A stretch of DNA of 64,000 nt from Candidatus Abzuiibacterium crystallinum (GTDB lineage: Bacteria; Omnitrophota; Omnitrophia; Omnitrophales; Abzuiibacteriaceae): positions 9,478 through 73,477 of the forward strand of contig PCVY01000028.1 of assembly GCA_002787155.1 (NCBI GenBank), in the 5' to 3' direction. Shown here one piece after another: positions 36,608 through 64,000 of this stretch. Positions within the stretch are counted from its first letter, which is position 1; the number at the start of each line of letters is the position of its first letter. The notes under the pieces were generated by a model. That model saw only the letters and a program-made list of their open reading frames with translations. It had not been told where the DNA came from and made no database searches. The translations under genes and the position numbers were made by a program.

Positions 36608-36612
36608 GGTAT

Positions 36613-37524: not shown

Positions 37525-37543
37525 TTTAATGATCTTTCATAAA

Positions 37544-38491: not shown

Positions 38492-38511
38492 GACAACAAA
38501 CCTTTCCTATA

Positions 38512-39807: not shown

Positions 39808-39810
39808 ATC

Positions 39811-40635: not shown

Positions 40636-40643
40636 AAAAATAT

Positions 40644-41954: not shown

Positions 41955-41961
41955 GAGCCCG

Positions 41962-43071: not shown

Positions 43072-43081
43072 GTCATGACCT

Positions 43082-43846: not shown

Positions 43847-43863
43847 GAAATTAAGAGTTGATA

Positions 43864-44616: not shown

Positions 44617-44699
44617 TTGGTTTTCACTTGCAACTTTTTAAAACCAATCAAAACGTTCTTCGCGCGTCATGTATGTTGATTGAGCGGCCACCGGCTGCA

Positions 44700-48701: not shown

Positions 48702-49643
48702 TCACCTTTCTCGTTGAACCATAAGTATTTGCTGCAAAACCTTTCGAATCAATTGCCTCAAACAAAGTCTAAACCAAAGCAAGGGTTTAATGAATGGGCT
48801 AAGCCATGATCCATTTTCCCGCAAAATAATTTCCACATCAAGATTTCTTAAAAGCCGTAACAACGATAAGCGTTTCCGTTGCAATTGTTCATTTCTTAAA
48901 ATCCATTGGGCGTCCGATAGACTAAAACAATGATCCATATCGCCTGCGAGTCTTAAATTTTCTTCCACTTCAGGCCCTACCCAAATATCTTGACTTAATC
49001 TGTTTTTAGCTAGAATATGATTCGGATAACCATGATTTTGATGAACAATAAAAAAGCTTTTAGTGGCATCAATCACTTCTGCATGAGAAAGACGTGCTTG
49101 ATAGATCAGCCAATTATCGTATTTGGTGCGGCCAATGGCAAATCTGGGCATTTGATTAAAAAGGCCTTTCTTAAATAGAAAGTAGTCAATACCGGTTTCA
49201 TCGCACAACTCACCTGTTTCTTGAACCCGTTTTTTCAAATCCGACTGCCAATCGTGGTTTTTAAAATTAATCCGTTCGGTAACGTCTAAATTCCAACGCT
49301 GCCCAATGATGAGGAAGTGACTGAAAGAAACTCGAGCCAGTAAAGTCTCAAACCCTTCCGTGAGAATGATATCGGTGTTGATATAGCATACGATGTCGTA
49401 ACGTGCCAGCTTTTGCGCTTGATTAAAAATAAAATTCACGAGCGGTGTGCCATATTGATTGCGCTCAAGCGCCGAAACATGCCGAAAACCAAACTCCTTC
49501 GCTGCCTGTTCTGTCCCCGTTTCATCACCAAAAAGGATAATTTCTGCATTCGGATTTAACTGTTTCCAGCTTTCGATGGCATTTTTCTGGATATGGTCAT
49601 AAATGCCGCTAAAAGGTTTTGGTAACGTAAAAATGGAAATCAT
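48702..49643 (-). CDS. Hypothetical protein, a possible GT-A-like glycosyltransferase
   Basis: The 313 aa product has a YINTDIIL D-x-D-like segment. No firm family assignment can be made. Confidence 0.3.
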   Translation of the reverse strand: MISIFTLPKPFSGIYDHIQKNAIESWKQLNPNAEIILFGDETGTEQAAKEFGFRHVSALERNQYGTPLVNFIFNQAQKLARYDIVCYINTDIILTEGFETLLARVSFSHFLIIGQRWNLDVTERINFKNHDWQSDLKKRVQETGELCDETGIDYFLFKKGLFNQMPRFAIGRTKYDNWLIYQARLSHAEVIDATKSFFIVHQNHGYPNHILAKNRLSQDIWVGPEVEENLRLAGDMDHCFSLSDAQWILRNEQLQRKRLSLLRLLRNLDVEIILRENGSWLSPFIKPLLWFRLCLRQLIRKVLQQILMVQRER

Positions 49644-50684
49644 TTAACGCACCCCTTTTACAACCGCCTCAATTACTTCACGAATAACACGCTTACTAAA
49701 CCGTTCTTCAAATCTATCTTTCATCGCTTTACTAAGTTCCAGCACCTCTTCACGTTTCAAAGAACATAAGTGCTTAATTTTAGCCACAATCGCTTCCGCA
49801 CTATTTTCCTGGAAGATCAAATGCTCATCGCCAATGACTTCCGGAATAGCGCCCGAATTCGAACCAATGACAATCACACCCCTGTCCATCGCCTCAACAA
49901 TCACACGCCCAAATTGTTCTTTCCACCACCCGACCGAAAGAGACGGCACAACAAGCACATCAATATCGTTAAACACTTTATCCAGCGCTTCCGATGAATA
50001 ATCAAACGGACCTTTATAATTAAATTGGGTTTGCTTGATTTCCGGCACCAGATAGCCGTTCCCATAAATATTAAACTCTAATTCCGGAAAATGTTTCATC
50101 GCCTCACACAGAACATCAATCCCTTTTTCATGGATAAGCCGGCCGACAAAACCAATCCGTTTCACTGACTCTTTATAGTTAACTTCAACTTGGGTATTAG
50201 AAACGGGTAACGGACAAACAAACGCCTTTTTCACGCCCATCTGTTCAGCGCGGGTTACCGCTTCCCGATTAGCGCATAGCGCAGAATCAATGCAGCGGGC
50301 AAAGAAACGTCCCAATAAAGTCTGGAGAAACGAGAATTTTAAATTCTCCGCACAAAATATGACGACCTTTGAGCGGCAAAACAACTTGGCAAATAAAGCG
50401 TGCAGCATGGTGGTGCTAAATATTTCATCATGTATCAATAAGACATTCCTTGTTTGATCCCGGCGGACAGCAGCATAAGGCCACATTGGATATAAAAATC
50501 CCCTTAAAGCCACCCAGCGCAGGGTGATGCATTTGACCGGTAAATGCGTTATATCTTTTTTTTTGGGTGGGCACGGATAATTAGAAATAAAATAGACTTG
50601 GCCGGCCAGATGTGTAGGAATAACATCAAGCATCGCATATTGCTCTGCTGCTAATTCACGAGGGTTGCATAGCAGAAACATCAT
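49644..50684 (-). CDS. GT4 family (GT-B) glycosyltransferase
   Basis: GFVGRLIHEKGIDVL and EQFGRVIVEAMDRGVIVIGSNSGAIPEVI match the GT4 E-x7-E region. The protein is 346 aa. Confidence 0.7.
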   Translation of the reverse strand: MMFLLCNPRELAAEQYAMLDVIPTHLAGQVYFISNYPCPPKKKDITHLPVKCITLRWVALRGFLYPMWPYAAVRRDQTRNVLLIHDEIFSTTMLHALFAKLFCRSKVVIFCAENLKFSFLQTLLGRFFARCIDSALCANREAVTRAEQMGVKKAFVCPLPVSNTQVEVNYKESVKRIGFVGRLIHEKGIDVLCEAMKHFPELEFNIYGNGYLVPEIKQTQFNYKGPFDYSSEALDKVFNDIDVLVVPSLSVGWWKEQFGRVIVEAMDRGVIVIGSNSGAIPEVIGDEHLIFQENSAEAIVAKIKHLCSLKREEVLELSKAMKDRFEERFSKRVIREVIEAVVKGVR

Positions 50685-50688
50685 CGGC

Positions 50689-53190
50689 TTACTCTTGATT
50701 TTCCATTTGAAAATATCGATCCCAATTAATGTGATAGGCTACCAACTTATTGGGAGGTAAATCAGTCTGCTGTTCCGTTAAAGGTGTAAAAAACTTGAGA
50801 TCAACAGCTTTTAAATAATACAAACGATACAGAACCGACCTCAATAAATCGGGAAACCCGACAACAGCCGTATAGGTATCCGGATACTCGAGAAGTAAAA
50901 CCGAAGTTGAATAAAGACCCATCCCCTTCATTCGCTTCTCAATCAAATGATCCTCTTCAACGTACATTAAACTGAATGGTCTTAAAGTCAAATTTTCTTT
51001 TTCATTATACAACAAGGCATCTTTCAGAACTAAATTAACAGCTAGGTTCTCTTCAAAGAATAATTCGTCTCCCGTTGATCGAAGAAGTTTTCTTTCGGGT
51101 CCATATTGCCAGTTATCCGTGACTAACTGAAGATGTTGCTTTAAAAAACGCCTGTCACCTATTTTTTTGTTTTGTCTGATCAATTCAGCTGCTCGATCAA
51201 AATCCCAATTAACCAGGTAAGATAGCCCGATGTTGCGAAAGATAAGGTCATCATAAATGAAAACGCAGCCGGGCGGCACCGGTTGCTCCGGGTGGGTTAA
51301 TCGTATTAATTCCTCGTACTGCGTTTTGGTAAGTTCTGGCGGCCCTTCGGCTGGCAGTTTTGATTTTGGAACACTAAGAACATTTAAAATTAACTGATTG
51401 ATCCTAGCAGCCCTCAACCCTAAATTCTCCAAGAAAACCTCGGCTTTATTTCCGGTGGTGGAGAGCATGCGCCAAATACTTAACGCAAGGAACTCATTCG
51501 CGGTCATGAAGGCCTGTGCCATCCAATAATTTTGATGACTGTATTGGCTGCCGCCATCTAACATGGTGCTTCTTTCGGCAATCGCATTGATAAAGTAACC
51601 GGGGTCAAACCACGAGTAAACAATGGTGTCTTTCGGCGTTTCTTTTTTAATATCGGTCAAAACTTGATTCCAAGTATCATTCATCACCTGTTCGTTGTTA
51701 AATACAACCACAGAAATATACTGAGCATACGCCACTGGAGGCATAACACAGCAAGCCAACAAAGCAAAAACAGCGGCAGGTAATTTCCAATCCCGTTTTG
51801 CCCCCCATTGATGTTTGATCATTTCAAGCGCATGATGTACAAAAAACGAAAAGAAAAGCGCAAAGGGCAGCACCAATAACACACTAAAACGAACTGCCTG
51901 CAAACTCAGGATTGCCGACGGTAGAAAAAAAGCCGTAAAAAAAAGAAATTCTGAAAAACGGAACTGGCTGCGTTGACACCAGGTGGTATAGGCCATGATG
52001 ACAAACCCCAAAACCACCCATACAAAACTCAGATCATTTCCTACCAGGTAAATCACTTTTCTCACAGATGCCGGATCCAATTCCGCGATGAACATAAGGG
52101 TGTTGGGCCAAATATCAAGCGATGAGCCGCTTGCTCTCACCCGCTCAAAAAGGAAGAATTTTTCTTGAAGCGACAATAAAAATGGATGACTGGGCAACAA
52201 GATAAAACTAAAGCACACCGCCGAAATGAAATAGCCGCTCAGCCACTGTAAATACTTTTGATTTCTTTGCTGATTGAAAAAAATTTCATAAAGCCCGGCA
52301 ATCAAGACGCTGACTGATATCACTAAAAATAAATAATGCCAAGCTTCCCAAAAAAATGCATAAATAACTGTCACAAATCCCGCCAGAAGAGAGCTGGCCA
52401 TAATAAACCGACGCCGGCGCAGCGGGTAAAACAATAACAATAAGACAATGAGAGGAAAAATAAGTTGATAAGGATCGTTATCATAACTGCCCAACGCGCT
52501 CCGCTGAAGATAAATAGGCGATAACGATAAGAATGCAGCGCCTGCAAAGGCAGCTAAAAAATTAAGCTCTAAGACAGCAGCGAAAAGAAAAAAAAGTAAA
52601 ATGGACAATACTGCAAGAAATATCGGATACCAAGCAAGGAGATCTACCAAAGCTGCTTTTTTAAAAAATAGTTTAAAGAAATTGGCCCAGGCAGCTCCCA
52701 GATATGGATGCAGGGTAATATTTTCCCACGAACCATCTGGGGCTTTCCTAAGGGGATTGAAAAACTTATTCTGACGAAATTTCTCACCGATGTGGCCCGT
52801 CCGCATAATATTCTCTGTTAATTGGTAATATAAATAAGCATCTGCACCTAATAAATAGAAATGGTTCTGTCGAACGCCCCCATTCTCTCTCAGTAGTTTT
52901 TTCTCGGTCTCAGCGGTTAAATTTAGAAATTGCAGCTTATCTTCGGCCATTGCCAACTTCATCCGCTCATCTGTCAATCGATTAAGCTGGGTTGTATTGA
53001 GGTGAGAATTTTCCGACTTTAACAACTGACGAACATGTTTTTCAGCCATTCCATAAGCAATCGATTCGGCTTTTTGGTGAATCTCTTGTGCGGTTAAACG
53101 GTTCGCATTTATCCGGTAACGAATGCGGTGATAGATGCCGAAAGCAATGACCAGCATAATCAAAATCAAATAAAACATGGGACGCTTCAT
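50689..53190 (-). CDS. STT3/AglB/PglB-family oligosaccharyltransferase-like membrane protein (OTase-1) with a degenerate WWDYG motif
   Basis: The 833 aa product has N-terminal TM helices. An EL1-like acidic motif LLGADAYLYYQLTENI is present (compare SNDGYAFAEGARDMI of PglB). There are about 12 TM helices and a TIxE-like FIAE segment. The C-terminal periplasmic domain carries SWFDPGYFINAIAERSTMLDGG, which aligns with PglB [21 protein letters not shown]. The start is trimmed to MKRPMFY to abut the upstream GT4 gene. Confidence 0.65.
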   Translation of the reverse strand: MKRPMFYLILIMLVIAFGIYHRIRYRINANRLTAQEIHQKAESIAYGMAEKHVRQLLKSENSHLNTTQLNRLTDERMKLAMAEDKLQFLNLTAETEKKLLRENGGVRQNHFYLLGADAYLYYQLTENIMRTGHIGEKFRQNKFFNPLRKAPDGSWENITLHPYLGAAWANFFKLFFKKAALVDLLAWYPIFLAVLSILLFFLFAAVLELNFLAAFAGAAFLSLSPIYLQRSALGSYDNDPYQLIFPLIVLLLLFYPLRRRRFIMASSLLAGFVTVIYAFFWEAWHYLFLVISVSVLIAGLYEIFFNQQRNQKYLQWLSGYFISAVCFSFILLPSHPFLLSLQEKFFLFERVRASGSSLDIWPNTLMFIAELDPASVRKVIYLVGNDLSFVWVVLGFVIMAYTTWCQRSQFRFSEFLFFTAFFLPSAILSLQAVRFSVLLVLPFALFFSFFVHHALEMIKHQWGAKRDWKLPAAVFALLACCVMPPVAYAQYISVVVFNNEQVMNDTWNQVLTDIKKETPKDTIVYSWFDPGYFINAIAERSTMLDGGSQYSHQNYWMAQAFMTANEFLALSIWRMLSTTGNKAEVFLENLGLRAARINQLILNVLSVPKSKLPAEGPPELTKTQYEELIRLTHPEQPVPPGCVFIYDDLIFRNIGLSYLVNWDFDRAAELIRQNKKIGDRRFLKQHLQLVTDNWQYGPERKLLRSTGDELFFEENLAVNLVLKDALLYNEKENLTLRPFSLMYVEEDHLIEKRMKGMGLYSTSVLLLEYPDTYTAVVGFPDLLRSVLYRLYYLKAVDLKFFTPLTEQQTDLPPNKLVAYHINWDRYFQMENQE

Positions 53191-54335
53191 TTTAAACAAT
53201 CCTTTTTTGCAACTTGTTCGCAGCATTTCAAAACTTCTTTAGCGGCTAGCTTCCATGTAAACAATTCGGCACGTCTTCGCGCCTGATCAATCATGGCATG
53301 GCGTTCGGCCGGCTCCATTTCAAGCAAAACTTGCAAATGATGCGCTAAATCCTGGTCATTATTTTCTTGGAAGTAACCAACACAATCTCCGCCGACTTCG
53401 GGGATAGAAGCACAGCGAGTCGTTAAAACCGGAACACCCGCTGACATCGCTTCTAAAATCGGAAGTCCAAAACCTTCGTAACGTGAGGGTAAAACAAATA
53501 CATCCGCACGGCGGTACAGCGGGAGTAAGTCCTGCTGAGAAAGAAATGGTACTCGACGGTAACGATTATTTGGAATTTCTTCACATGCACGTTTTAGCAT
53601 GGGCTCACCCAGGCGGGGTTGGCCAACCAGAATCAATTGATGAGAAATCTGAGACAATAACCGTTTGAAAGCACTTACCAAACATGGTAAGTCCTTGTGC
53701 GGATAGGAGTTAGCAACACACAATATATAAGGTTTTTGGCTTTGTAAAACAGACTGCACTGTTGGATGGATTTTTTTTTGGTGCTCTGATTGAAATAACG
53801 GCGAAACACCGCATGAACTAACAGCCACTTTGGTCGGCGGAACGTCTAAAAATTGCACAATTTCACGTTTCGAAAACTCGGAAAGTGTGATAATTATTTC
53901 GCATTGACGGCTCGCGCTAATGACTAGAAAATGAGTGACTAGTCGTGATAGAAAGTTTAAATCTTCCGGAAATCGTTTGTATTGCATGTCAAGGATGGTG
54001 ACAATTTGAGGGCAATGCGCATACAGCGGAGCCGTATAACCCGGCGACCACAAAATATCTACTTTGGCTTGGTAGGCGCGTATCGGTAGTTCCGTTTGCT
54101 CACGAATGATCCTGACATAGCGGTTAGTGGCATGAAATGAAAGCTTTGAAAAGGTGACGTTTGGGTATTTTCCGAATTGGTTTTGCAGCGAGTCATGGTT
54201 GTCCTGATGTGTAAAAAGACAAAACTCAACACTGGGCTGCATGGCAACCATCGCCTGCAGCGTTTCGCGTAAAATAGTTTCTGATCCACCAACTTCATTT
54301 GGAATAAGAAACAGCGCATTCACGCCGATTCGCAT
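53187..54335 (-). CDS. GT4 family (GT-B) glycosyltransferase
   Basis: PSRYEGFGLPILEAMSAGVPVLTT is the GT4 signature. The protein is 382 aa. It is directly upstream of OTase-1 with a 4-bp overlap. Confidence 0.75.
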   Translation of the reverse strand: MRIGVNALFLIPNEVGGSETILRETLQAMVAMQPSVEFCLFTHQDNHDSLQNQFGKYPNVTFSKLSFHATNRYVRIIREQTELPIRAYQAKVDILWSPGYTAPLYAHCPQIVTILDMQYKRFPEDLNFLSRLVTHFLVISASRQCEIIITLSEFSKREIVQFLDVPPTKVAVSSCGVSPLFQSEHQKKIHPTVQSVLQSQKPYILCVANSYPHKDLPCLVSAFKRLLSQISHQLILVGQPRLGEPMLKRACEEIPNNRYRRVPFLSQQDLLPLYRRADVFVLPSRYEGFGLPILEAMSAGVPVLTTRCASIPEVGGDCVGYFQENNDQDLAHHLQVLLEMEPAERHAMIDQARRRAELFTWKLAAKEVLKCCEQVAKKDCLK

Positions 54336-54377
54336 GAACTATTATCCCCTTCTGCGCGGCAATCAAACAATTGGTAG

Positions 54378-54851
54378 CTAGGACAAATAACCTAACAGTG
54401 CTCTGCGTTTTTTGTTTTGCTCATACACGTCTTCGCCTAAAACTTGTTTTGCCAACTCTTCTTTGTTTTGGCCGTTGTAAAAGTCGTAATCCATTACCGC
54501 CAAGACTTTCAACACAATTGGTAACGGCAACTCTAACATCGTCGGATCCGCTGCAAGCTGTTCGTTAATTTTGGTTGCATAATAACTTGCGGGAAGCAAA
54601 ATAGCCGCGTTGTCCCTGATTTTAAATAACTCAATCATGGCTCGGACAACTTCCGCTTGGTCCGTTTCACTCAACCGATCCCAAGATTTTGCAGACTTTG
54701 TCAGTTGGCCTGCCTGTTGCCGTAGGTTCGTAGGCACCTGCAATGCCTGCATAAGCTCAAGCAAATCTACTTGCTCCTCGGCCCATAATACAGGCATTGC
54801 TGCAGTCGCCCAAAAACCAACTGTTAACAGAAAGATCAACCGGCGCTTCAT
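54378..54851 (-). CDS. Hypothetical secreted or periplasmic protein
   Basis: Signal-peptide-like MKRRLIFLLTVGFWATAAMPVLWA. The start is trimmed to an internal Met to avoid overlap. Confidence 0.4.
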   Translation of the reverse strand: MKRRLIFLLTVGFWATAAMPVLWAEEQVDLLELMQALQVPTNLRQQAGQLTKSAKSWDRLSETDQAEVVRAMIELFKIRDNAAILLPASYYATKINEQLAADPTMLELPLPIVLKVLAVMDYDFYNGQNKEELAKQVLGEDVYEQNKKRRALLGYLS

Positions 54852-54870
54852 CGGATCAAGCATTCGGTCA

Positions 54871-55092
54871 TTACTTTCTCTTGCCGGCTGCTTTAAGTCT
54901 TGCAAGCCGCATCTTTTGTTTTGCGGCAGCGGAATGATGTCTTCCGTACATCGGATTTTTCTTGCCTTTTACCGCCCGACTAATTTTTTGTTTAGAACTA
55001 CTCGAATGCTTTCTTCCATAAAAAGGGTTGCCTTTTCCAGAAGCTAGTTTACTCATTAATCTTTTAGTTTTAGCTGAATGTTTTTGTCCCAT
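54871..55092 (-). CDS. Small, highly basic protein with two NUMOD3-like motifs (a putative DNA-binding module)
   Basis: The 73 aa product repeats N-P-[FM]-Y-G-R-[KH]-H-S-x3-K-Q-K-[IM]-[SR]-x-A twice. This resembles the NUMOD3 motif (NP.YGK.HSEETK.KIS.A.KG) found in homing endonucleases. Confidence 0.4.
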   Translation of the reverse strand: MGQKHSAKTKRLMSKLASGKGNPFYGRKHSSSSKQKISRAVKGKKNPMYGRHHSAAAKQKMRLARLKAAGKRK

Positions 55093-55123
55093 TTTCTTCT
55101 CCTGTTCTGAGGTTATTATTCGT

Positions 55124-56290
55124 TTACCTATACTTCTTAAAAATTTCCAATGCTTTTCTAGTTTGCTGATCTTCTCCTTCTACACCTTCAACCAGATACG
55201 GCACTTCCTCATCCGGAACAATCCCGACCTTATCAATGACCCTCCCGTTTGGTGATATATATCTTGCCGTTGTTAATTTCATGGCAGTTTTATCATCTAA
55301 CGGAACAACAGACTGAACAGACGCTTTTCCGTACGTTTTCATCCCCACAACTATTCCGCGTTTGTGGTCTTGTATAGCAGCTGAGAAAATTTCGGAAGCG
55401 CTGGCAGAATGTTCGTTAACCAACACGATTAAATCGCAATCCGTTAGATGTTTACTTCCATCTGAGAAATGCTCTTTCTTTTGAACATCAATGCGGCTTT
55501 CAACCGAAACTATTTTCTTGTCACCCGGTAAAAAACGGCTTGCCAAATCAATGGCGGCTGTCATTAAACCGCCTTGATTGTTTCTCAGATCAATAATCAA
55601 CGCCTTCATACCCTCCTTTGTCAATTTCTTGATTGCTTTATCAATTTGATCGGCTGTGTGTTCTTGGAAATTATCAATTCTAAGATAGCCGAGATGTCGT
55701 CCAGCCATCCGGACATCGTTAATAGCACTAATCTCCACCAATTCGCGGATAACCTTAATATCAATGGGCTCTGGTACCGTCGGCCTCTGAACCCTTACCA
55801 TCACCTCGGTGCCAGCTTCCCCGCGCAACAATTCGGCTACTTCAGCCATCCCTAAACCAATCACATCTTTACTGTCTACCTTGAGAATCATATCCTTTAC
55901 TTCCAATCCTGCTTTCTGAGCAGCGCTGGCAGGCTTAATTTCTTTGATAAAGATTTGGTTATCAACCATCTCTAATACGGCTCCCAAGCCTGAGTACTCT
56001 CCTTTCATATCAATCTGCAGCAGCTTGTAATGTTCCTCATCAATAAAAACGGTATAAGGGTCCATACCCTCCAACATCCCTTTCACTGCATGATAGAGCA
56101 GTTGGCGTGCATCTTTTTTCTCAACATAGCCTTCCAAAACGGCGCCAATGGCACGTGAGAAAAGTTTTAATTCCTCCAGAACATCGTAACTTTCGCTTTG
56201 CACAGCGGCAGCAGACGAATGTCTGCTGTTAATAGCGGACATCAATAAAATTAAAGAACCTATTAAAAAAAATCCAACCTTTTTCTTCAT
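55124..56290 (-). CDS. S41-family C-terminal processing peptidase (Prc/CtpA-like) with a PDZ domain
   Basis: Signal peptide. A PDZ-like segment is present. Catalytic-region motifs GGLMTAAIDLASRFL and HSASASEIFSAAIQDHKRGIVVGMKTYGKASVQS (Ser/Lys dyad context). The protein is 388 aa. Confidence 0.75.
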   Translation of the reverse strand: MKKKVGFFLIGSLILLMSAINSRHSSAAAVQSESYDVLEELKLFSRAIGAVLEGYVEKKDARQLLYHAVKGMLEGMDPYTVFIDEEHYKLLQIDMKGEYSGLGAVLEMVDNQIFIKEIKPASAAQKAGLEVKDMILKVDSKDVIGLGMAEVAELLRGEAGTEVMVRVQRPTVPEPIDIKVIRELVEISAINDVRMAGRHLGYLRIDNFQEHTADQIDKAIKKLTKEGMKALIIDLRNNQGGLMTAAIDLASRFLPGDKKIVSVESRIDVQKKEHFSDGSKHLTDCDLIVLVNEHSASASEIFSAAIQDHKRGIVVGMKTYGKASVQSVVPLDDKTAMKLTTARYISPNGRVIDKVGIVPDEEVPYLVEGVEGEDQQTRKALEIFKKYR

Positions 56291-56303
56291 CTTACACTCG
56301 CTT

Positions 56304-57308
56304 TCAGTTTGCGCTTAAAAATTTCTCGTGCCAATACAAAATATCTCCGGTACGGGTTGTGACGCAATTAATTAATAGTGCTTCTGAACGATTTCTGAGT
56401 CGAGCTAAGCTTTGAACCGTGTAAGCACTAGACTGCAATGTAAGAAGACCCGACTGAACATAATCATGCAAACTTTGAGCTTCACTATCATCTAGGGGAA
56501 AGGCGTTTTGAAGCGTTTCGGCGACAGAACTTAAACTAATAAAATAATGGTCATCAGGCGTGCGTTCGACGCCATCCTCGCCGGCACGAAAACGTAATAT
56601 TTTCTTAACCAAACTTTCCGACATCCCAATTGAAACTAAGATAATTGGTGAGGCGGTATTTAAATTAAGCAGACCTGAGCCATACAAGGTCAGATAGGGT
56701 GATAAACGCTCGTAAATAGCGGGCGTCATCCCGCGAATGAAGTTCATTTCTTCAAGGATATCCAAAGGTTCATTTTTAGGCTGATAAGGCGGTTTCAGTC
56801 TCATATAATATTTTTTCTCCGCCCCCGCTTCATACGCGTGATCATCCTCGTCCATCCAGTCAAGTAAGGCGTAAGCAATGTGAGCAGCCTCTTCTTTTGA
56901 CAAACCACCTGCCAACTGAAATAAATTGCTTAAGATGCGTGCGGACGTGATTAATCTTAAACTGATTTTACTTTCCTCATCGATCATGCCGCTATAAACT
57001 GTATTCCCGATTTGATAGCCGACAGTAAAATAGCCATCCCCAACTGGAATTTCGTGAAACGCACTTTCATTAACACTCCAACCATCATTTAAGACATCGG
57101 GTAACTGCGATTGAACATCTTTCATTGCCAACACTTGAATAGCCTTTTGAACACCTGCTTCTGCTATATAACGCAATTTTGACTTGGTTTCGAAGGTTTG
57201 TGCCATTTTTAGCTTCCCCTGGACTATACGGCCAACCACGGACGTAAAAAGAGCTAACAAGAGTAAAACCCAAATGGCTAGAATCAACAAACTCCCTCTT
57301 TTATCCAT
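56304..57308 (-). CDS. gspK: Type II secretion system minor pseudopilin GspK-like protein
   Basis: N-terminal hydrophobic helix (LLILAIWVLLLLALF). The conserved GspK motif LLNLNTASPIIL (PxNxNTAS) is present. The protein is 334 aa. Confidence 0.6.
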   Translation of the reverse strand: MDKRGSLLILAIWVLLLLALFTSVVGRIVQGKLKMAQTFETKSKLRYIAEAGVQKAIQVLAMKDVQSQLPDVLNDGWSVNESAFHEIPVGDGYFTVGYQIGNTVYSGMIDEESKISLRLITSARILSNLFQLAGGLSKEEAAHIAYALLDWMDEDDHAYEAGAEKKYYMRLKPPYQPKNEPLDILEEMNFIRGMTPAIYERLSPYLTLYGSGLLNLNTASPIILVSIGMSESLVKKILRFRAGEDGVERTPDDHYFISLSSVAETLQNAFPLDDSEAQSLHDYVQSGLLTLQSSAYTVQSLARLRNRSEALLINCVTTRTGDILYWHEKFLSAN

Positions 57309-57315
57309 AAAACTT

Positions 57316-57660
57316 TTATTTGTCCAATAACTTGAGTTGACGACTCACGTCTGTCAGCTTGTCTGACATATCATTGATCTTAACCTCCAACGCATTCATC
57401 TTTTCCGTCAGCTGTTCAATGCTGGCGTGCACTTTGTCAAAATGCCGTTTCATATATATATCGACACCTTCGGGCTCATATTTGCCTCCTATTCTGATAA
57501 CCTCACGGTCCTCAGCCATGTTATAGACAATCCCGTATTTTTTAATGCCTTCCGAAGTTTCATCCGATTTTCTCTCCTCCGCAAAAACAGACATGCACAC
57601 GACGCCTGACAACACGCTCATCATGGCTAAGCCCACTATGAGGTTAGGTAGTTTTTTCAT
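57316..57660 (-). CDS. Small secreted coiled-coil protein, hypothetical
   Basis: Signal peptide MKKLPNLIVGLAMMSVLSGVVCMSVFA. The C-terminal region is a heptad-rich helix. The protein is 114 aa. It overlaps the OTase-2 start by 17 bp. Confidence 0.4.
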   Translation of the reverse strand: MKKLPNLIVGLAMMSVLSGVVCMSVFAEERKSDETSEGIKKYGIVYNMAEDREVIRIGGKYEPEGVDIYMKRHFDKVHASIEQLTEKMNALEVKINDMSDKLTDVSRQLKLLDK

Positions 57661-60421
57661 CTAATTCTCCTTGTTCAATTTCAGTAATATGGTCAATTTG
57701 TTCCCAATTAATTTTAAATATTTTAACGGTTGTTTTTTGATCACTTTCTTGATAAACGGGCTTAAATAAAGAAAGCGTGATGCCATCCAAATAATACAAT
57801 TGATACAGCACTGAACGGATCAATGCCGGATCCGCGACAACTGCGCGCAACTGGCCCTGACGTTTAAAAAGCAAAACTGACAATGATACTTGGCTTTGAG
57901 GAAAAACATGCTCTACCAGTTTTTGATCAGTGACTTCAAAAACACTATAGGGCTGAATTCGTCCTACCCCGCTTGGCGGCTGTATCCAGATGCTTTGTGT
58001 TTGCATGTCCAGCAAAACACCGTTCTCGAATAATATCTTGTTCTCTTTTTGTTCACGAATCCCTGCTTCCGGCAAATATTTCCAAGCACCTTCAATCGTA
58101 TCGAACACCTCACTTAAATAGCCTTGAAATTTTTTCTCCTTCACTTCTTCATATCTGGTTAAATTTGTTGTGAGCCACCGATCTGCTGCCTGACCACCCA
58201 AGAAAGTTGGGCTCAAACCCACTTCCAGTGGCACTGAAGATTGCGATGCCTGAGGTGTCACGGGCGCTTGACTGTTTATTTGGTGATTAGGAATAAGAAG
58301 AGGATTTGTCCAGAAGGGTGTCTGTAAAACATTTTGAACCCAGTTACCCAAAGCAAGAATGATAGGTTTTTGAGTCAGTTGTTTTTTTTGCTGAAACTCT
58401 TTTGCCTTCCTAAAATTCCACTTTGCAAGGAGGGTCAAGGCTAAATTTTTTTCCATCAAATCATTATAAAGAAATAGATAAGAAGGCGGCGGTTGCTCAA
58501 TTTGTATCAAATTAACAAATGCTTTTTGTTCATCCGCTGACATTTTTCCGCTTAATTGCGCCATCAGGCTTGCTGGATCTAACGTCATGGAATCAGTAAT
58601 TAATTCGATGGCATCTGACAACTCCCAATGGCGCTCAAGCAGAAAATCAAGAGGCGCATTGCCTTTTGTGTTAACCATATTAAATAATCCAACTGCTGTT
58701 TTCTCATCAGAAGAAAGAAAAGCTCTGGCCATCCAATAGGTTTGGTGATTTTGCTGGGTGCCGCCGTCAATAACGGTGCGGCGTTCGGCGACTGCATTAA
58801 TAAAATAGCCGGGAGGCCACCAGCTATCAATAATGGCATTCGGGGGACTCTTCTCTTTTAAGTTCAGTAGACTATTATACCAAACATCATTCATAATCCT
58901 ACTCACCCCTTGCGCCCCGATATGTCCCAGAACCAACGGTACCGGAAGAAACAGACAGATCATGAGGAGCCTGGACACATATTCAAAAATCCTGATCCGA
59001 GGTGAATGTGAAAGAAAAATATTTCTAACGTTTAAGAGAGACTGCTCGATCGCATAGAACCCAAGGGCTGTCATGAAACCAAATGGGACTACCAACAAAA
59101 TAGCAAAACGCTCTGTTCGTAACGCCAATAAAATGGTAGGGATAGAAAATATAAAAATCACAAGCCATGCGAAACCCAACTCGGCCTTTTTCTCTTTTAA
59201 AAGAATGGCAATCAAGTAGCAAATGCCGTAAAGAGCAACCATTGCCATCACGGGGCTGCTGCATAAATACACCAGCTTTTTTATCGTCAAAGAATTGGTT
59301 TCGGCCACTGTTAAAAACGCATTTGGCCAAACCGAGACATCTGTGGATGAAAACATGGGGAGAAAGGTAAAAGACTCTTGAAAGACTTCCCACAAACCTC
59401 GCGGGGTCAAAAACAACACTGCCGCCGCCAATGTTGTGATGCCGTAAATAAGTCCAAACAAAAACATATGGTGCTTCATTCTAACGGCCAATTGGATAAA
59501 TCCAATTGCCAAACAGATGACGAATGCAAGCATAAACATATAAATCCATCCTGCCCAAAACAGCGTGTAGACCCCCGTGAGAAAACCAGCCGCAATCGGA
59601 TATCGAAATTGCTTTCTGTTTCCCTGTCGGCAGGCGAGGCACATGAGTCCGAAAATTAGGAGCTGGAATAACGGTTGGTAAGGATCGGTGTCATACCACC
59701 CAAGCGCACTCCTTTGCAAGTAAGCGGGAGCCAGCATCAAAGTAACGAGCCCTAGAAAAAGGGCGGATCCGCTTAAATTAAGCATCCGCCCAACCACAAA
59801 AAAAAGAAGACAACTTGCGCACACGAGAACAAGCGGAAAATATGAAAGCCCCTCCATCATATCAATTTTAGGATTCAAAGCATGAATGATCTTAAACCAG
59901 GAATAGCCTAAATATGGATGAAGCGTCTTGAGTGCCCACGCTCCGCTGGGGGCTTCACGAAGAGAGTTGAAAAAGCGCCCCGATTGATACGCGGATGATA
60001 ACTGACCCTCCTTTACAATCCGTTGAGTAAGGCTATAATAGTAATAAGAATCAGCGCCCAATAAGTAAATTCTTGAGTGTCCTTCATTACCGCCCCCTTT
60101 TGCTATTTGACTTGCCAATTTCTCAACACTTTCTTGAAATTGATCGTGGCTATTTTCAATAATTCTATCTGCTTGTTCATGCACCAATTGGTTCTTTAAT
60201 TTTTGATCAAGTCCTGGCAGTGAAGTTTCGTCTATGTTTTTTTTGATTTGACTGACAATTTTATTGTAAACCGCATCCCGCGCTAACTTGTGCGCAACAA
60301 AAGGTGAAACTTTGCGCAAGGTCTCTGTTCTAAAAAAACAGGCAATCAATCCAGATAAGATAATCAGCCCAATCCAGAAAAGACGCGACAGAAGACGATT
60401 GTCTTGCTGAAAAGTATGCAT
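57644..60421 (-). CDS. STT3/AglB/PglB-family oligosaccharyltransferase-like membrane protein (OTase-2). The WWDYG motif is replaced by SWWPPGY.
   Basis: The 925 aa product is a paralog of OTase-1. It has YLLGADSYYYYSLTQRI (EL1 acidic motif), a TIxE-like TVAE, and IIDSWWPPGYFINAVAERRTVIDGG aligning with PglB WWDYGY…TLVDGG. A long C-terminal periplasmic extension follows. Confidence 0.65.
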   Translation of the reverse strand: MHTFQQDNRLLSRLFWIGLIILSGLIACFFRTETLRKVSPFVAHKLARDAVYNKIVSQIKKNIDETSLPGLDQKLKNQLVHEQADRIIENSHDQFQESVEKLASQIAKGGGNEGHSRIYLLGADSYYYYSLTQRIVKEGQLSSAYQSGRFFNSLREAPSGAWALKTLHPYLGYSWFKIIHALNPKIDMMEGLSYFPLVLVCASCLLFFVVGRMLNLSGSALFLGLVTLMLAPAYLQRSALGWYDTDPYQPLFQLLIFGLMCLACRQGNRKQFRYPIAAGFLTGVYTLFWAGWIYMFMLAFVICLAIGFIQLAVRMKHHMFLFGLIYGITTLAAAVLFLTPRGLWEVFQESFTFLPMFSSTDVSVWPNAFLTVAETNSLTIKKLVYLCSSPVMAMVALYGICYLIAILLKEKKAELGFAWLVIFIFSIPTILLALRTERFAILLVVPFGFMTALGFYAIEQSLLNVRNIFLSHSPRIRIFEYVSRLLMICLFLPVPLVLGHIGAQGVSRIMNDVWYNSLLNLKEKSPPNAIIDSWWPPGYFINAVAERRTVIDGGTQQNHQTYWMARAFLSSDEKTAVGLFNMVNTKGNAPLDFLLERHWELSDAIELITDSMTLDPASLMAQLSGKMSADEQKAFVNLIQIEQPPPSYLFLYNDLMEKNLALTLLAKWNFRKAKEFQQKKQLTQKPIILALGNWVQNVLQTPFWTNPLLIPNHQINSQAPVTPQASQSSVPLEVGLSPTFLGGQAADRWLTTNLTRYEEVKEKKFQGYLSEVFDTIEGAWKYLPEAGIREQKENKILFENGVLLDMQTQSIWIQPPSGVGRIQPYSVFEVTDQKLVEHVFPQSQVSLSVLLFKRQGQLRAVVADPALIRSVLYQLYYLDGITLSLFKPVYQESDQKTTVKIFKINWEQIDHITEIEQGELDEKTT

Positions 60422-60781: not shown

Positions 60782-61486
60782 ATGAACACCCAAAAAATAC
60801 TTATCATTGTTCCCGCACTTAATGAAGAAAAACTCATCGGAGACCTTGTCCGTGAAATTAAGGCCGCCTATCCGTATGATGTTTTGGTCATTAACGATGG
60901 CTCGCTTGATCAAACTGCAGTTTATGCTGTTCAAGCGGGTGCCAAAGTTGTAACACATCCTTATAATCTTGGGATTGGCGGTGCCGTTCAAACAGGTTTT
61001 AAGTTTGCTGAGAAAGAGGGATATAAAATTGTTGTACAAGTTGACGGCGACGCTCAACATGACCCGCGATACATCCAGCCTCTTATAGAACCTGTCTTAA
61101 AAGGGCAATTTGATTTGTGTATTGGATCTCGTTTTATTAAACCTTCCGACACGTTTAAATCTACATTCATTCGGCGAATTGGTATCCGTTTTTTTGCTGT
61201 TCTATTGGGCTGGCTAACCGGTGTCCATGTAACGGACCCAACATCCGGCTTTCGAGCCACCGGCCCTGCTCTGATTAAACCATTTTCAACGAACTACCCC
61301 GTCGATTTTCCGGAGCCTGAAACCATTAAAATCGCAAAACGCTTAGGCGCTCATGTTGGCGAAGTCCCTGTGCAGATGCGTCAGCGTCTAAGCGGTCATT
61401 CGTCGATTCGCTATTTTCGAACGGTTTACTACATGATCAAAGTCACTATAGCCATACTCATTGATGCTTTAAGACGTAACAAATAA
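60782..61486 (+). CDS. GT2 family glycosyltransferase, DPM1-like polyprenyl-phosphate sugar synthase
   Basis: N-terminus ILIIVPALNEEKLIGDLV…VLVINDGSLDQT…VVQVDGDAQHDP (DxD). The protein is 234 aa. A small DUF2304-type membrane protein gene follows. Confidence 0.7.
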   Translation: MNTQKILIIVPALNEEKLIGDLVREIKAAYPYDVLVINDGSLDQTAVYAVQAGAKVVTHPYNLGIGGAVQTGFKFAEKEGYKIVVQVDGDAQHDPRYIQPLIEPVLKGQFDLCIGSRFIKPSDTFKSTFIRRIGIRFFAVLLGWLTGVHVTDPTSGFRATGPALIKPFSTNYPVDFPEPETIKIAKRLGAHVGEVPVQMRQRLSGHSSIRYFRTVYYMIKVTIAILIDALRRNK

Positions 61487-61495: not shown

Positions 61496-61846
61496 ATGAA
61501 TGTAAATTTCTTTGCAATTTTAAGCGCTTTTCTTATTTTATGTTTGGTTATTGAACTGATTCGACAACAAAAAATGACCTTTAAATATTCTTTATCGTGG
61601 TTGAGCGCCAGCCTTCTTGTTATCATTCTTGCTTTTAATGAAAAACTCTTAGCTAAAATCTCTACTTTTTTTGGCTTTGAACTGCTGAGTAATTTTATTT
61701 TCTTTTTGCTTCTTTTATTTTTTGTCTTCTTAAGTCTTCGGTTAACGATATTTATTAACGAACAAAATAACCGAAGTGAAACTTTGGCTCAAACGGTTGG
61801 TATTCTTGAGCATAAAATTAACGAGCTCGAGAAAAAAACACACTAA
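61496..61846 (+). CDS. Small membrane protein (DUF2304-like), a GT2-associated partner
   Basis: The 116 aa product has two or three TM helices and a C-terminal coiled-coil tail. It forms a conserved gene pair immediately downstream of a DPM1-like GT2 gene. Confidence 0.5.
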   Translation: MNVNFFAILSAFLILCLVIELIRQQKMTFKYSLSWLSASLLVIILAFNEKLLAKISTFFGFELLSNFIFFLLLLFFVFLSLRLTIFINEQNNRSETLAQTVGILEHKINELEKKTH

Positions 61847-61854: not shown

Positions 61855-62523
61855 TTAGAAAAACTCAAATCCCGCTCCTCCCTGAGTCGTATCAGATTCG
61901 CTCTTCTCTGGCGTTTTCATAATGTCTTCAATCCGTCGCGCTAAATCGTCGCGGCCGATCTGACGGAGCAGTGTTATTGACTTGAGCGCAGCTCCTCGCT
62001 TTTCTGCCGCGACATAGGCAAGCCCTAATCCATACTGCGCTTCCACAACGTCTGGGTCTCGCTTGACTGCCTTTTCAAAATACTGAACTGCATCGTACCC
62101 GTTTTGTTTCTGTAATTCTAACCAACCTAATCCCGTGTAGCCTTTTGCAAAGTTTGGATCGGCTTCAATTGATTTTTCAAAAAATTCTTTTGCTAAAATC
62201 GGATCCTTAGCCACCCCGGCATAATAGGTCCCAATATTAAAATATGGGTCGCCGTAATGCGGATTCAGTTCGGTCGCCGTCATAAATGCGTTCATTGCAC
62301 CGATGATACCTTCTTCGGTTTTTAGAAGCGCCACACCCAAGGCATTGTGAAATTGCGGGATATTGGGATTCGCTCGTATGGCTTTACGAAATGATTCAAT
62401 GGCTAATGGGATCTCGCCTTGATTTATGAATTCAATACCAGCTTCGAAATAATGACGCTCATCTTGCGCTCGCAGCGGTCCAGCCGTTAAAAAGAAACTT
62501 AAAAAGAAAATCAAAATGATCAC
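61855..62523 (-). CDS. Tetratricopeptide-repeat (TPR) protein, secreted
   Basis: Signal-peptide-like N-terminus. Repeated TPR signatures are present (…AIESFRKAIRANPN…, …AKEFFEKSIEADPNFAKGYTGLGWL…, …AVQYFEKAVKRDPD…). The protein is 222 aa. Confidence 0.7.
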   Translation of the reverse strand: MIILIFFLSFFLTAGPLRAQDERHYFEAGIEFINQGEIPLAIESFRKAIRANPNIPQFHNALGVALLKTEEGIIGAMNAFMTATELNPHYGDPYFNIGTYYAGVAKDPILAKEFFEKSIEADPNFAKGYTGLGWLELQKQNGYDAVQYFEKAVKRDPDVVEAQYGLGLAYVAAEKRGAALKSITLLRQIGRDDLARRIEDIMKTPEKSESDTTQGGAGFEFF

Positions 62524-63179
62524 GTCTCTTCCTCCGAGGGAATCGGCACCGTTTTATTCTGGCCTCCTGTTGTCATAGGTACTTCGGCGGGCATTACTTC
62601 AACCCCTATCTCATCTTCAGTTTCTCCGTCGTTTGTAATAAAAATGCGTGACATGGATAGACTGGCGTTAATCACATCTGAGTTTTTCCCTTTAGGTTCC
62701 AGCAAATACTGAGTGATGCGAAATAAAAAATCTGAATCTTCAAGTGCCTGCATAAATTCCAGCATGTTCCGCAACTTCCCATTACACTCGAGCGTTGTTT
62801 TGTACTCTTGCATAATTGGATTGCCTTCCACATCGCCAGGCTGCACATTTGTGATATTGATGGACATTGCTGCAGCAATTGATTCAATTTCTCTTAAAAG
62901 ATCCGCAATAATCTCCTCTTGAGCTTTCTCGCCACTATCGAGATAGTGCTGATACTGCCTGTATTCACGCAAAATACTGTCTTTGTAGGACAGAACACGA
63001 ATGCTACGCTTTATTGCTTGAGACTTCGCATCAATTTCAGCATCCAGCACTTTTTGTTCTGCCAAAATCGGCCCCAGAACAAGCAGATCCATGAGCAGCA
63101 TGAGCACGCATATAATCGCAGCGATTATTAATATTTTTTCTTTTTTTTGTAACTTGTTATAAAAATCGTTAATATTCAT
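62520..63179 (-). CDS. GspM/PilO-like type II secretion or type IV pilus inner-membrane assembly protein
   Basis: Short cytoplasmic N-terminus, a single TM segment (ILIIAAIICVLMLLMDLLVLGPIL) and a periplasmic coiled-coil domain. A 4-bp overlap with the upstream gspL-like gene. The protein is 219 aa. Confidence 0.45.
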   Translation of the reverse strand: MNINDFYNKLQKKEKILIIAAIICVLMLLMDLLVLGPILAEQKVLDAEIDAKSQAIKRSIRVLSYKDSILREYRQYQHYLDSGEKAQEEIIADLLREIESIAAAMSINITNVQPGDVEGNPIMQEYKTTLECNGKLRNMLEFMQALEDSDFLFRITQYLLEPKGKNSDVINASLSMSRIFITNDGETEDEIGVEVMPAEVPMTTGGQNKTVPIPSEEET

Positions 63180-64000
63180 TAAATTCCCTCAACCAAGGTA
63201 CATTCGATGGAAAAATCTGCTACTTCTTTTTGTCCTTCCCGCCTTGATTTTGTTTCTTTGGTTTGCACATCCGTAAAGAAATTAGATTCTTCTAATTCAG
63301 TGACGAATGCAAAAATACGTGACATGGAATCAGCTGTCCCTCCAATGGTAATGGCGCCCTCCTTGTCGTAACTAAACCTAGACAAGTAAATATCATCACC
63401 AATCATGGAATTTATCTTCTCAAAGACATGGAGACCTCTGCCCCTTTTACGCAAGAGTTCTCGAACAGCCCGACTTTTGGTTGATTTTTCTTCTAATTCC
63501 CTGGCTTGCTCAAATGTTGACTCATTTAATGTTTCCAATTTCTTGCGGTGCTCATTTTTAATATAACTCTTCACTAATAAAAAAACGCTGATTAATAGGA
63601 AGACTGTCATGATCAAAATGCCAAATTCGATAACATCTTTTCCGCTTTTTCGAAAGGACCGCCTTATTTTAATTTCCTTTGGAATTAAATCGATCCTTGT
63701 CAGGCTTAGCATCTCGTAGGAGGAGAAGACATCAAAAAATGAATCATCTGTGGCTTGTGCAATCATTTGAGATACTTCACTTCCCGTTTGAAATCTATCT
63801 TTTGCTTGAATGAATGAAACTTTTGTTTCATGATCTTTAATATAAGGAATGGCGCCTTCTATTCCCTGTTTGATTAATTCGTGGTACTCAGGTATGCTGG
63901 CAACGAACAGCATTTTAATCACTTGCCCCACACCTTGATCTTGATAAGCGACGATAGATTTACTTAATTCCGAGATAAACTCCTTGACTGCCGCTTCGCG
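63179..64000 (-). CDS. GspL-like bitopic secretion-system protein (cytoplasmic domain, TM, periplasmic domain). Partial: the N-terminus lies beyond the window end.
   Basis: The reading frame stays open upstream of the annotated GTG (63931) to the window edge. A central TM segment (ILIMTVFLLISVFLLV) separates cytoplasmic and periplasmic domains of roughly 100 aa each. It is adjacent to the gspM-like gene. Confidence 0.45.
   Translation of the reverse strand, partial: REAAVKEFISELSKSIVAYQDQGVGQVIKMLFVASIPEYHELIKQGIEGAIPYIKDHETKVSFIQAKDRFQTGSEVSQMIAQATDDSFFDVFSSYEMLSLTRIDLIPKEIKIRRSFRKSGKDVIEFGILIMTVFLLISVFLLVKSYIKNEHRKKLETLNESTFEQARELEEKSTKSRAVRELLRKRGRGLHVFEKINSMIGDDIYLSRFSYDKEGAITIGGTADSMSRIFAFVTELEESNFFTDVQTKETKSRREGQKEVADFSIECTLVEGI

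Follow-up and report, generated by a model that had tools for sequence, protein, structure and literature searches.

What do two divergent STT3-type genes do in a member of the Candidatus Omnitrophota, and which of the gene systems around them do they serve? The genes lie in a 64,000-nucleotide stretch of Candidatus Abzuiibacterium crystallinum (assembly GCA_002787155.1, contig PCVY01000028.1, positions 9,478 to 73,477 of the forward strand), which is called the window here and to which all coordinates refer. Open reading frame A (ORF-A; 50689..53190, minus strand) encodes a divergent STT3-family paralog of 833 amino acids (aa), and ORF-B (57644..60421, minus strand) encodes an STT3-family GT-C glycosyltransferase of 925 aa, the conserved copy linked to a filament operon. 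An initial annotation, made from the sequence alone, placed both in a glycan "super-locus" and had them transfer to protein, en bloc, a glycan assembled by the ATP-binding cassette (ABC) transporter-dependent route. Our comparisons lead elsewhere, since ORF-B is an orthologous copy fixed beside or inside a type IV filament operon that resembles a type II secretion system (T2SS).

The family assignment itself was borne out. In the profile check that the initial annotation had proposed, both proteins passed the Pfam cut-offs for PF02516 STT3 (63 bits for ORF-A and 67.6 bits for ORF-B; cut-off, 24.5) and PF21436 STT3-PglB_core (25.6 and 28.3 bits, respectively; cut-off, 23), and the Pfam search reported no ArnT or PMT family for either of them. 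With a mutual identity of 29% across 707 aa (E value [E], 2e-99), they are the two diverged paralogs that had been described. NCBIfam gave both proteins only far-sub-threshold matches, to archaeosortase-associated STT3 and to PglB, so neither ORF belongs to a named equivalog. A profile built from 15 family members and searched against solved structures matched archaeal AglB best (Archaeoglobus fulgidus AglB-L, PDB 3WAJ/7E9S, with counterparts in Haloferax and Methanococcus; E, 2.3e-19), followed by mammalian STT3A (E, ~1e-15) and Campylobacter lari PglB (E, ~1e-6). In ORF-B numbering, the alignment to AglB equates D124 with D47, D244/D246 with D161/H163, R438 with R426, and SWWPPGYF with SWWDYGHW. 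AlphaFold2 models of ORF-A (mean predicted local distance difference test [pLDDT] score, 83.7; predicted template modelling [TM] score, 0.79) and ORF-B (79.4 and 0.77) both had PglB as their top Foldseek match, with E values of 5e-21 and 1e-18, respectively, and target TM scores of 0.65-0.69; AglB and eukaryotic STT3 came next for both. At the level of fold, each model shows an STT3-type GT-C protein with a multihelix transmembrane domain and a C-terminal periplasmic globular domain. Membership in the ArnT, PMT, AftA or DPY19 families was considered and rejected, as the fold scores were much lower and the match covered the transmembrane part only. Profiles and Foldseek thus placed neither protein in another GT-C family and found the STT3 periplasmic domain in both, and ORF-A and ORF-B are almost certainly members of the STT3/AglB/PglB superfamily, to which CAZy family GT66 corresponds.

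Two further stretches of sequence stand out. Between the first transmembrane helix and the catalytic Asp lie about 90 residues with three predicted periplasmic helices (residues 31-124 of ORF-B, 60050-60331 on the minus strand, and the equivalent stretch of ORF-A); they are conserved in the Omnitrophota family and have no counterpart in the profile alignments to A. fulgidus AglB (AfAglB) and STT3A, where the Asp stands at position 47-49. ORF-B also contains a Pro/Gln/Ser-rich insertion of about 75 residues (687-761; 58139-58363, minus strand; pLDDT, <50), which is shared with few members only (P0002 and P0010) and is absent from ORF-A and most relatives.

Characterized STT3 proteins carry two DXD motifs, TIXE/SVSE, WWDYG, DGGK/DNXT and DK/MI, and the Ser/Thr pocket that lies behind the N-X-S/T sequon is formed by WWDYG and DK/MI together (PMC8342417). 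All the motif strings given in the initial annotation are present in both ORFs and in the order claimed: LLGADAYLY (113-121), QRSALGSYDNDP (229-240), WPNTLMFIAE (361-370), SWFDPGYF (526-533; 51592-51615 of the window) and LDGGSQ (544-549) in ORF-A (833-aa numbering), and LLGADSYYY (120-128), QRSALGWYDTDP (236-247), WPNAFLTVAE (365-374), SWWPPGYF (533-540; 58802-58825 of the window) and IDGGTQ (551-556) in ORF-B. The key residues are therein D117, D237-N-D239, FIAE370, R434 and DGG for ORF-A and D124 (60050-60052), D244-T-D246, TVAE374, R438, WWPPG (534-538) and DGG (552-554) for ORF-B. In an alignment of 155 family members, numbered according to ORF-B, D124, R237, D246, P366, E374, R438, G538 and R547 are invariant (155/155), D244 is kept in 154 members and D552-G553 in 153. 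The acidic motif of external loop 1 (EL1; D124/D117), the TIxE-like Glu (E374/E370) and the DGG behind the WWDYG-like block, all of which had been picked out from a single pair of sequences, hold in all or nearly all of these members.

The first DXD Asp, in EL1, aligns to AfAglB D47 and STT3A D49, and two positions before it, both ORFs have Gly where most members have Glu. The second DXD aligns to AfAglB D161-H162-H163 and to YDNE of STT3A. For TIXE, which reads TVGE in the family consensus, the equivalence is one of position and conservation, the HMMER local alignment being ambiguous in the EL5 loop. R438 and R434 are HMMER-aligned to AfAglB R426 (equivalent to PglB R375), an Arg with a described role at the lipid-phosphate site (PMC8342417).

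The WWDYG-like block follows a different course. As had been claimed, such a string is present in both ORFs, and ORF-A (WFDPG) keeps the Asp with the second Trp changed to Phe and the Tyr to Pro, but ORF-B (WWPPG) and 151 of the 155 members have lost the Asp, and neither ORF has a canonical WWDYG. Residues in the Asp column are Pro (110 members), Ser (24), Cys (6), Ala (5), Thr (4) and Asp (4), and the residue that follows is Pro in 151/155. The four Asp-retaining members are ORF-A, P0163 (SWFDPGYF), P0090 (SYWDPGYF) and the distant P0014 (WWDYG). A separate count over ORFs of the genome loci gave WWPPG 36 times, WWSPG 5 times, WWCPG twice and Asp not once, with one of its two search patterns biased toward the motif. 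Because canonical WWDYG occurs in more distant relatives (P0014 and P0015), the replacement is most simply read as derived. In the DGGK motif the DGG is present and the Lys position is Thr or Ser in ORF-A, ORF-B and most members; a conserved [DE]-[LM]-[IV]-E-x-N-L follows the beta-strand YLFLY (ORF-B 652-662) at the place where canonical relatives carry DxxK. Judged by these alignments, the residues predicted to serve the chemistry (metal and phosphate) are under strict constraint and half of the putative sequon pocket is rebuilt, so that with the Asp missing from ORF-B and 151/155 members classical N-X-S/T recognition cannot be assumed.

Omnitrophota are ultra-small, host-dependent bacteria, and the two proteins turn out to be part of a large, so far unnamed clade that is found in this phylum. 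Word-indexed searches returned a handful of relatives at 29-36% identity, and an exhaustive profile search returned 5,124 cluster representatives at an E of ≤1e-3 and 1,256 at ≤1e-30, of which the best 150 are full-length. A genome scan yielded no relatives with ORF-B as the single query and succeeded only when the family alignment was used instead. Relatives are encoded in 142 stretches of species-representative genomes; the locus counts given below refer to the best 80, which come from 80 different assemblies and are all labelled Candidatus Omnitrophota/Omnitrophica or belong to untyped metagenome-assembled genomes ("uncultured bacterium" or "Planctomycetales"). Identical copies of both ORFs occur in several assemblies of one organism, for example on contig PFGO01000060.1 of GCA_002781965.1, under the NCBI/UniProt names Candidatus Omnitrophica bacterium and Candidatus Abzuiibacterium crystallinum, and the two proteins are labelled hypothetical or uncharacterized.

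According to the published view, bacterial STT3 homologs are few, were acquired from Euryarchaeota and occur in few proteobacterial lineages (PMC4973528). Our full-text searches, whose scope also took in PglB with Planctomycetes, found no paper that links Omnitrophota or Omnitrophica to STT3 or oligosaccharyltransferase or that describes this clade, and none on STT3 genes in pseudopilin clusters. Since the Pfam domain is automatically detectable, the label "STT3 homolog" is already known and not new by itself. Three features appear to be undescribed: that the clade is so large and restricted to Omnitrophota, that WWD has changed systematically to WWP while the catalytic core is invariant, and that the genes are embedded in a T2SS-like operon along with an S41 protease and a donor module of the GacI/GacJ type.

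To see what accompanies these genes elsewhere, the window proteins were compared by tblastn with the 80 loci, within 10 kb on either side. Homologs of Wzm, Wzt, NeuB, UGDH and a methyltransferase were found in 0/80 loci within that distance, and a homolog of each family 4 glycosyltransferase (GT4) in 1/80. Filament proteins were common: tetratricopeptide repeat (TPR) protein in 60-61 of the 80, PilM/N in 52-57, GspK in 54, PilO/GspM-like in 53, GspG in 50, GspF in 46, GspE in 45 and S41 peptidase in 29. Many of the loci without such homologs are cut by contig ends. Of the 38 loci that extend for 6 kb or more in both directions, 34 have at least three filament genes. The "glycan super-locus" is consequently not the conserved context of these genes; the filament operon is. 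For ORF-B, the transfer en bloc of an ABC-transporter-built glycan is left without comparative support, given the lack of Wzm, Wzt and NeuB from the 80 loci and the conservation of the filament operon, and for ORF-A it stays a possibility only. The neighbouring Wzm/Wzt and nonulosonic acid locus is probably not what either ORF serves.

Two gene orders recur. In the order seen in the window, GspE (MshEN and PilZ)-GspF-GspG-pilin-pilin-PilM/N-PilO-TPR is followed by a divergent DUF2304 plus family 2 glycosyltransferase (GT2) pair and then by STT3-cc114-(GT2)-GspK-S41-p161, where cc114 and p161 are small secreted proteins. In the second order, (S41)-STT3 is convergent with TPR-PilO-PilM/N-GspK-…-GspE. 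The TPR gene, the last gene of the filament operon ahead of the STT3 gene, adjoins it in 60-61/80 loci and in both arrangements; the S41 protease gene is next to STT3 in 29/80, upstream or downstream depending on the arrangement, and shifts together with it. Orthologs of cc114 lie directly downstream of STT3 in 19/80 loci, and p161 orthologs are found in 16/80 and in one further locus, L087, which is discussed below. We found no gene for a secretin within 10 kb.

The T2SS-like set of the source genome is divided by the window end. Within the window, all on the minus strand, are the PilN part (C-terminal) of a 496-aa PilM-PilN fusion (63179..64000; Pfam PilN), whose gene continues past the window; a 219-aa bitopic PilO/GspM-like protein (62520..63179; weak NCBIfam GspM match); a PilW/PilF-like TPR protein with a signal peptide (61855..62523; Pfam TPR families and a weak NCBIfam type_IV_pilW match); and, beyond ORF-B, a 334-aa GspK-like minor pseudopilin (56304..57308; Pfam T2SSK_1st, 79 bits; NCBIfam GspK, 91.8 bits, below cut-off). 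GspE, GspF, GspG and PilM/N follow on the source contig beyond the window and can be read from PFGO01000060.1, which carries T2SSE with MshEN and PilZ (GspE), T2SSF, T2SSG, two minor pilins, and PilM_2 and PilN complete.

A third arrangement was found in a very distant relative of the WWDYG type (19% identity; JGI metagenome 3300033149, locus L086, 1-18544). There, GspE-GspE-GspF and a 150-aa type IV pilin precede three tandem STT3 genes (WWDHG, WWDYG and WWDYG), behind which come genes for a GT2 (with GT2_TM_C), a radical-SAM protein, another GT2 and a GT4. The pilin has a single sequon, N127-S-T, inside its C-terminal Cys-Cys loop. Another distant WWDYG relative sits in a classical Alg7/WecA-type plus GT28 context with no filament genes. 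Taken together, these neighbourhoods make it likely that the STT3 protein is functionally tied to the filament system.

The genes between ORF-B and the TPR gene bear on the donor. A 234-aa GT2 (60782..61486, plus strand; Pfam Glycos_transf_2), divergent from ORF-B and similar to GacI, PpgS, AglJ and Dpm, is followed after 10 nucleotides by the gene for a small membrane protein of 116 aa (61496..61846, plus strand; Pfam DUF2304, 68.6 bits; cut-off, 25.5) that resembles GacJ and Rv3632. Against solved structures, the GT2 matched the Pyrococcus dolichyl-phosphate (Dol-P)-mannose synthase 5mlz (E, 1.8e-15) and then GtrB and ArnC; its best NCBIfam matches are PpgS and AglJ, and all NCBIfam matches are below cut-off. 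The GT2 occupies the same position in 27-28/80 loci, and DUF2304 is next to it in 21/80. In known systems, GacI makes the GlcNAc-P-undecaprenol that the GT-C enzyme GacL uses and is bound and stimulated by the DUF2304 protein GacJ, and Rv3632 stimulates PpgS in a similar way (bioRxiv 10.1101/180810); euryarchaeal AglB uses monophosphate-linked donors (PMC8342417). With a GacI/GacJ-like pair conserved beside ORF-B, the analogy points to a donor linked to polyprenyl monophosphate rather than to the undecaprenyl-diphosphate (Und-PP)-linked polysaccharide exported by Wzm/Wzt.

ORF-A has a setting of its own. Read from its first ATG it would span 50689..53226 (845 aa), and gene callers prefer the second Met, at 53190, which gives 833 aa; this start overlaps the stop of the upstream GT4 gene (53187..54335, minus strand; Pfam Glycos_transf_1 and Glyco_transf_4), and 4 nucleotides separate ORF-A from the downstream GT4 (49644..50684, minus strand; Pfam Glycos_transf_1). 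Next comes p313 (48702..49643, minus strand; 313 aa), which has no Pfam or NCBIfam match and travels with both GT4 genes. The tree nests ORF-A within the family, on a long branch. Loci usually have a single copy, and tandem pairs occur: locus L008 (3-4392) has two tandem copies, both WWPPG, upstream of cc114-GspK-S41, from which we take local STT3 duplication to be recurrent, and in L087 (4529-9735) a WFDPG copy (833 aa) directly precedes a WWPPG copy (902 aa) inside the filament operon. Downstream in L087 are cc-GspK-S41-p161 and then a GT4 with 42% identity to the one upstream of ORF-A, a GT4 with 34% identity to the one downstream, and a p313 ortholog (43%). The window differs in that the WFDPG copy, ORF-A, is placed between the two GT4s. 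This recurrence of GT4-GT4-p313 indicates that the block GT4-ORF-A-GT4-p313 belongs with the filament/STT3 module and not with the Wzm/Wzt locus. The Asp-retaining P0090, for its part, is found with a PMT_2 protein, two GT4-like genes and a Wzx-like flippase. The pattern suggests subfunctionalization, with Asp-retaining copies accompanying GT4 and flippase genes and Asp-less copies accompanying the filament operon.

In the scenario that we favour, and to which we would give about even chances overall, ORF-B glycosylates a filament component or cargo without relying on a canonical sequon, and ORF-A is an accessory paralog coupled to the assembly of a glycan by the GT4s. By their conserved residues, both ORFs look like active GT-C glycosyltransferases. 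At the cytoplasmic face, the GT2/DUF2304 pair would charge polyprenyl monophosphate with a sugar, probably N-acetylhexosamine (HexNAc) or hexose, which the two GT4s may or may not lengthen. After flipping, ORF-B would transfer the sugar at the periplasmic face to a filament protein (a pseudopilin or an assembly component) or to cargo, with acceptor recognition that would not depend on the +2 Ser/Thr hydroxyl. ORF-A has retained the WWD Asp, and its translation is coupled to that of two GT4s; it probably uses the oligosaccharide that they build and has a more sequon-like specificity. A parallel would be archaeal AglB with its Dol-P-linked donors, which modifies type IV pilins and archaellins (PMC4390842, PMC4336324). 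A stronger form of the proposal, in which the whole Omnitrophota STT3 clade is a dedicated modifier of filaments or cargo that has abandoned N-X-S/T (WWPPG) and draws its donor, a polyprenyl-monophosphate sugar, from a GacI/GacJ-type synthase, is conceivable but doubtful.

Several observations weigh against the favoured scenario. The filament linkage is genomic only, and in the second arrangement the convergent orientation leaves no co-transcription. It is only in window-like loci (21-28/80) that the GT2/DUF2304 pair stands next to STT3, Pfam matched no GtrA or Wzx family next to ORF-B, and the contrast in context between Asp-retaining and Asp-lacking copies comes from four proteins. The [DE]-[LM]-[IV]-E-x-N-L segment is only a candidate equivalent of DK/MI, by its position in the sequence. 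Nor did a sequon search of the cluster proteins pinpoint an acceptor: the major pseudopilin of the source genome, a typical GspG, has no N-X-S/T sequon, and when orthologs were compared for nine proteins of the cluster (GspG, two minor pilins, cc114, p161, PilO, TPR, GspK and S41), no sequon column proved to be conserved and sequon density was at background (0.3-0.9 per 100 aa). We accordingly rejected a classical sequon-bearing neighbour as the obvious target, there being no conserved sequon and no enrichment. The lack of conserved sequons also agrees with the loss of the Ser/Thr-pocket Asp. As a lead only, cc114 could be a partner or substrate of the STT3 protein through N47-x-A49; its strongly conserved columns among 20 orthologs are G43, N47, A49, D51, R52, E55, G58, G59, Y61 and P63, with E64, G65, D67, K68, Y69 and R72 also conserved.

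How do other explanations fare? If both ORFs were classical N-oligosaccharyltransferases that take the place of WaaL and move the Wzm/Wzt-pathway glycan en bloc onto N-X-S/T of periplasmic proteins, ORF-A would fit, as it lies on the same strand and a few genes upstream of UGDH, an epimerase, Wzm, methyl- and sulfotransferases, Wzt, NeuB and a 2-epimerase, retains the WWD Asp and has GT4s on both sides. A WaaL-like ligase had been reported missing, and indeed no Wzy_C/WaaL/PglL-type domain was found in the scanned window ORFs of at least 150 aa or in the scanned smaller ORFs, two large ORFs being unannotated. This explanation is nevertheless quite unlikely in our view, with Wzm, Wzt, NeuB and UGDH within 10 kb in 0/80 related loci, the sequon-pocket Asp missing from ORF-B and 151/155 relatives, GT4-GT4-p313 following the filament operon of L087 in a stretch with no transporter gene, and no initiating phosphoglycosyltransferase found in the window by Pfam scans. 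The acceptor might instead not be protein at all, with the STT3 scaffold re-purposed to pass a single sugar from polyprenyl phosphate to a periplasmic glycan, to lipid A or lipopolysaccharide, or to peptidoglycan (compare GacL, ArnT and Rv3779). A GacI/GacJ-like pair beside ORF-B is the signature of such three-component systems, and both the lost pocket Asp and the neighbours without conserved sequons would fit, but the peptide-facing elements (the TIxE strand, W-W-x-P-G and the whole STT3-type periplasmic domain) are strongly conserved, the conserved partners are filament proteins rather than glycan polymer genes, and no characterized STT3-family member is known to have a nonprotein acceptor. 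We regard this as rather unlikely.

Two further possibilities concern the linkage and the enzymes themselves. The adjacency to filament genes would mean little if it were phylogenetic inertia and the STT3 proteins performed general N-glycosylation in Omnitrophota, on a wide range of unrelated targets; all the loci do come from one phylum, STT3 is convergent to the operon in the second arrangement, and 4/38 full-flank loci have no filament genes. However, the linkage persists at 27-36% protein identity and in two gene orders, it takes a third form in a very distant relative with three STT3 genes behind GspE-GspE-GspF-pilin, and the S41 protease moves with the STT3 gene between arrangements, so that we hold inertia to be decidedly improbable. 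We think it very improbable indeed that either copy, or both, is a decaying duplicate or a scaffold without catalytic activity, for although ORF-A is on a long branch and ORF-B has the 75-residue low-confidence insertion, both ORFs are intact and keep every invariant catalytic residue of the family.

Several known systems come close to what is seen here. Archaeal AglB and the window ORFs have in common the catalytic Asp and the second acidic motif, the Glu of TIxE, the Arg of the phosphate site and a DGG-type motif, and the GT2 of the window resembles the AglJ-type enzyme that begins the donors of euryarchaeal AglB. The Omnitrophota proteins differ from AglB in forming a bacterial clade, in reading WWPPG or WFDPG for WWDYG, in having ~100 extra residues between the first transmembrane helix and the catalytic Asp, and in having genes that sit with those of the pseudopilins GspG and GspK in a T2SS-like operon of bacterial type, among neighbours without conserved sequons. 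PglB of C. lari and C. jejuni (3RCE, 5OGL and 3AAG) is further away, at 14% identity and E of 1e-6; there is no pgl-type locus here, ORF-B lacks the WWD Asp, and the donor genes suggest polyprenyl monophosphate instead of an Und-PP-heptasaccharide. A short GT2 and a DUF2304 partner beside a GT-C enzyme are likewise seen in GacI/GacJ/GacL of Streptococcus pyogenes, PpgS/Rv3632/Rv3779 of Mycobacterium tuberculosis and GtrA/B/C, and in this precedent the pair makes a HexNAc-P-polyprenol that the GT-C enzyme uses outside the membrane (bioRxiv 10.1101/180810). In contrast to these three-component systems, which decorate glycans and not proteins, the GT-C enzyme here is of the STT3 type with a peptide-binding-type periplasmic domain, not of the GacL/ArnT type, and no flippase family match lies beside ORF-B. 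A lipid-carrier-dependent glycosyltransferase in or next to a type IV filament cluster is also the arrangement of the pilin glycosylation enzymes PilO/TfpO, PglL, TfpW and TfpM. None of these is known to be an STT3 homolog; they belong to the Wzy_C family of O-oligosaccharyltransferases or to other GT-C types, and no Wzy_C domain was found in the scanned window ORFs.

These comparisons set a whole bacterial phylum with a large, diverse and unannotated STT3 clade against the usual picture of a few proteobacteria. If the stronger form of the proposal is true, the STT3 family would gain a novel specificity for acceptors and perhaps a novel chemistry of linkage, the clade would supply the first case of an STT3-type enzyme that is part of a bacterial secretion or pilus machine, and ORF-A and ORF-B would be two enzymes of different specificity in one pathway. 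If the favoured scenario holds, the clade would be a natural experiment in re-engineering of the sequon pocket, a source of a candidate new oligosaccharyltransferase specificity for glycoengineering, and a handle on the surface biology of Omnitrophota.

The remaining genes downstream of ORF-B are all on the minus strand. The start of cc114 (57316..57660), a secreted coiled-coil protein of 114 aa with the core YNMAEDR..GGKYEPEG, overlaps the end of ORF-B, and the protein matches no Pfam family above threshold. The S41 C-terminal processing peptidase (55124..56290; PDZ plus S41, CtpA/B-like) scored 185.8 bits with Pfam Peptidase_S41 and 304.6 bits, above cut-off, with NCBIfam prc, and p161 (54378..54863; 161 aa, secreted) has no Pfam match. 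Between the latter two is a basic 73-aa ORF composed of NUMOD3 DNA-binding motifs (54871-55092, minus strand; Pfam, 85.8 bits). It is absent from the same gap in the related loci L081 and L087 and has the look of a homing-endonuclease-type element, either inserted into the operon or left there as a remnant. Scans of the window for tRNAs and Rfam families found nothing, and promoter and terminator counts between 48 and 64 kb were at or below shuffle expectation and thus uninformative on operon boundaries.

The glycan genes that the initial annotation had placed around the two ORFs (GT4s, NeuB and Wzm/Wzt) were all recovered with Pfam, the locus comprising GT4s, GT2s, UGDH, UDP-GlcNAc 2-epimerase, sulfotransferases, methyltransferases and three PMT_2 GT-C proteins. 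Two ORFs at 3026-4750 (minus strand, 574 aa) and 5638-7200 (plus strand, 520 aa) match no Pfam family at E ≤0.001 and give faint hints only, of Acyl_transf_3 and of an LPXTG-like segment. The PMT_2-type genes (17760-19340, 19347-20897 and 23938-25398) are on the plus strand, unlike the rest of the glycan locus, and are interleaved with a B12-binding radical-SAM protein (21028-23034) and an S-adenosylmethionine-dependent methyltransferase (25395-26195). Wzm (45520-46344), Wzt with a Wzt_C domain (38512-39807) and NeuB (33315-34355) are encoded on the minus strand, and the interval between Wzm and NeuB (34410-45536, minus strand) holds, besides Wzt, two sulfotransferases, a PhyH-type dioxygenase, four methyltransferases of the Methyltransf_24/TylF type, a GT4-like (Glyco_trans_1_4) gene and a weak STELLO-like glycosyltransferase. 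This content suggests a heavily methylated or sulfated, end-capped polysaccharide that depends on the ABC transporter.

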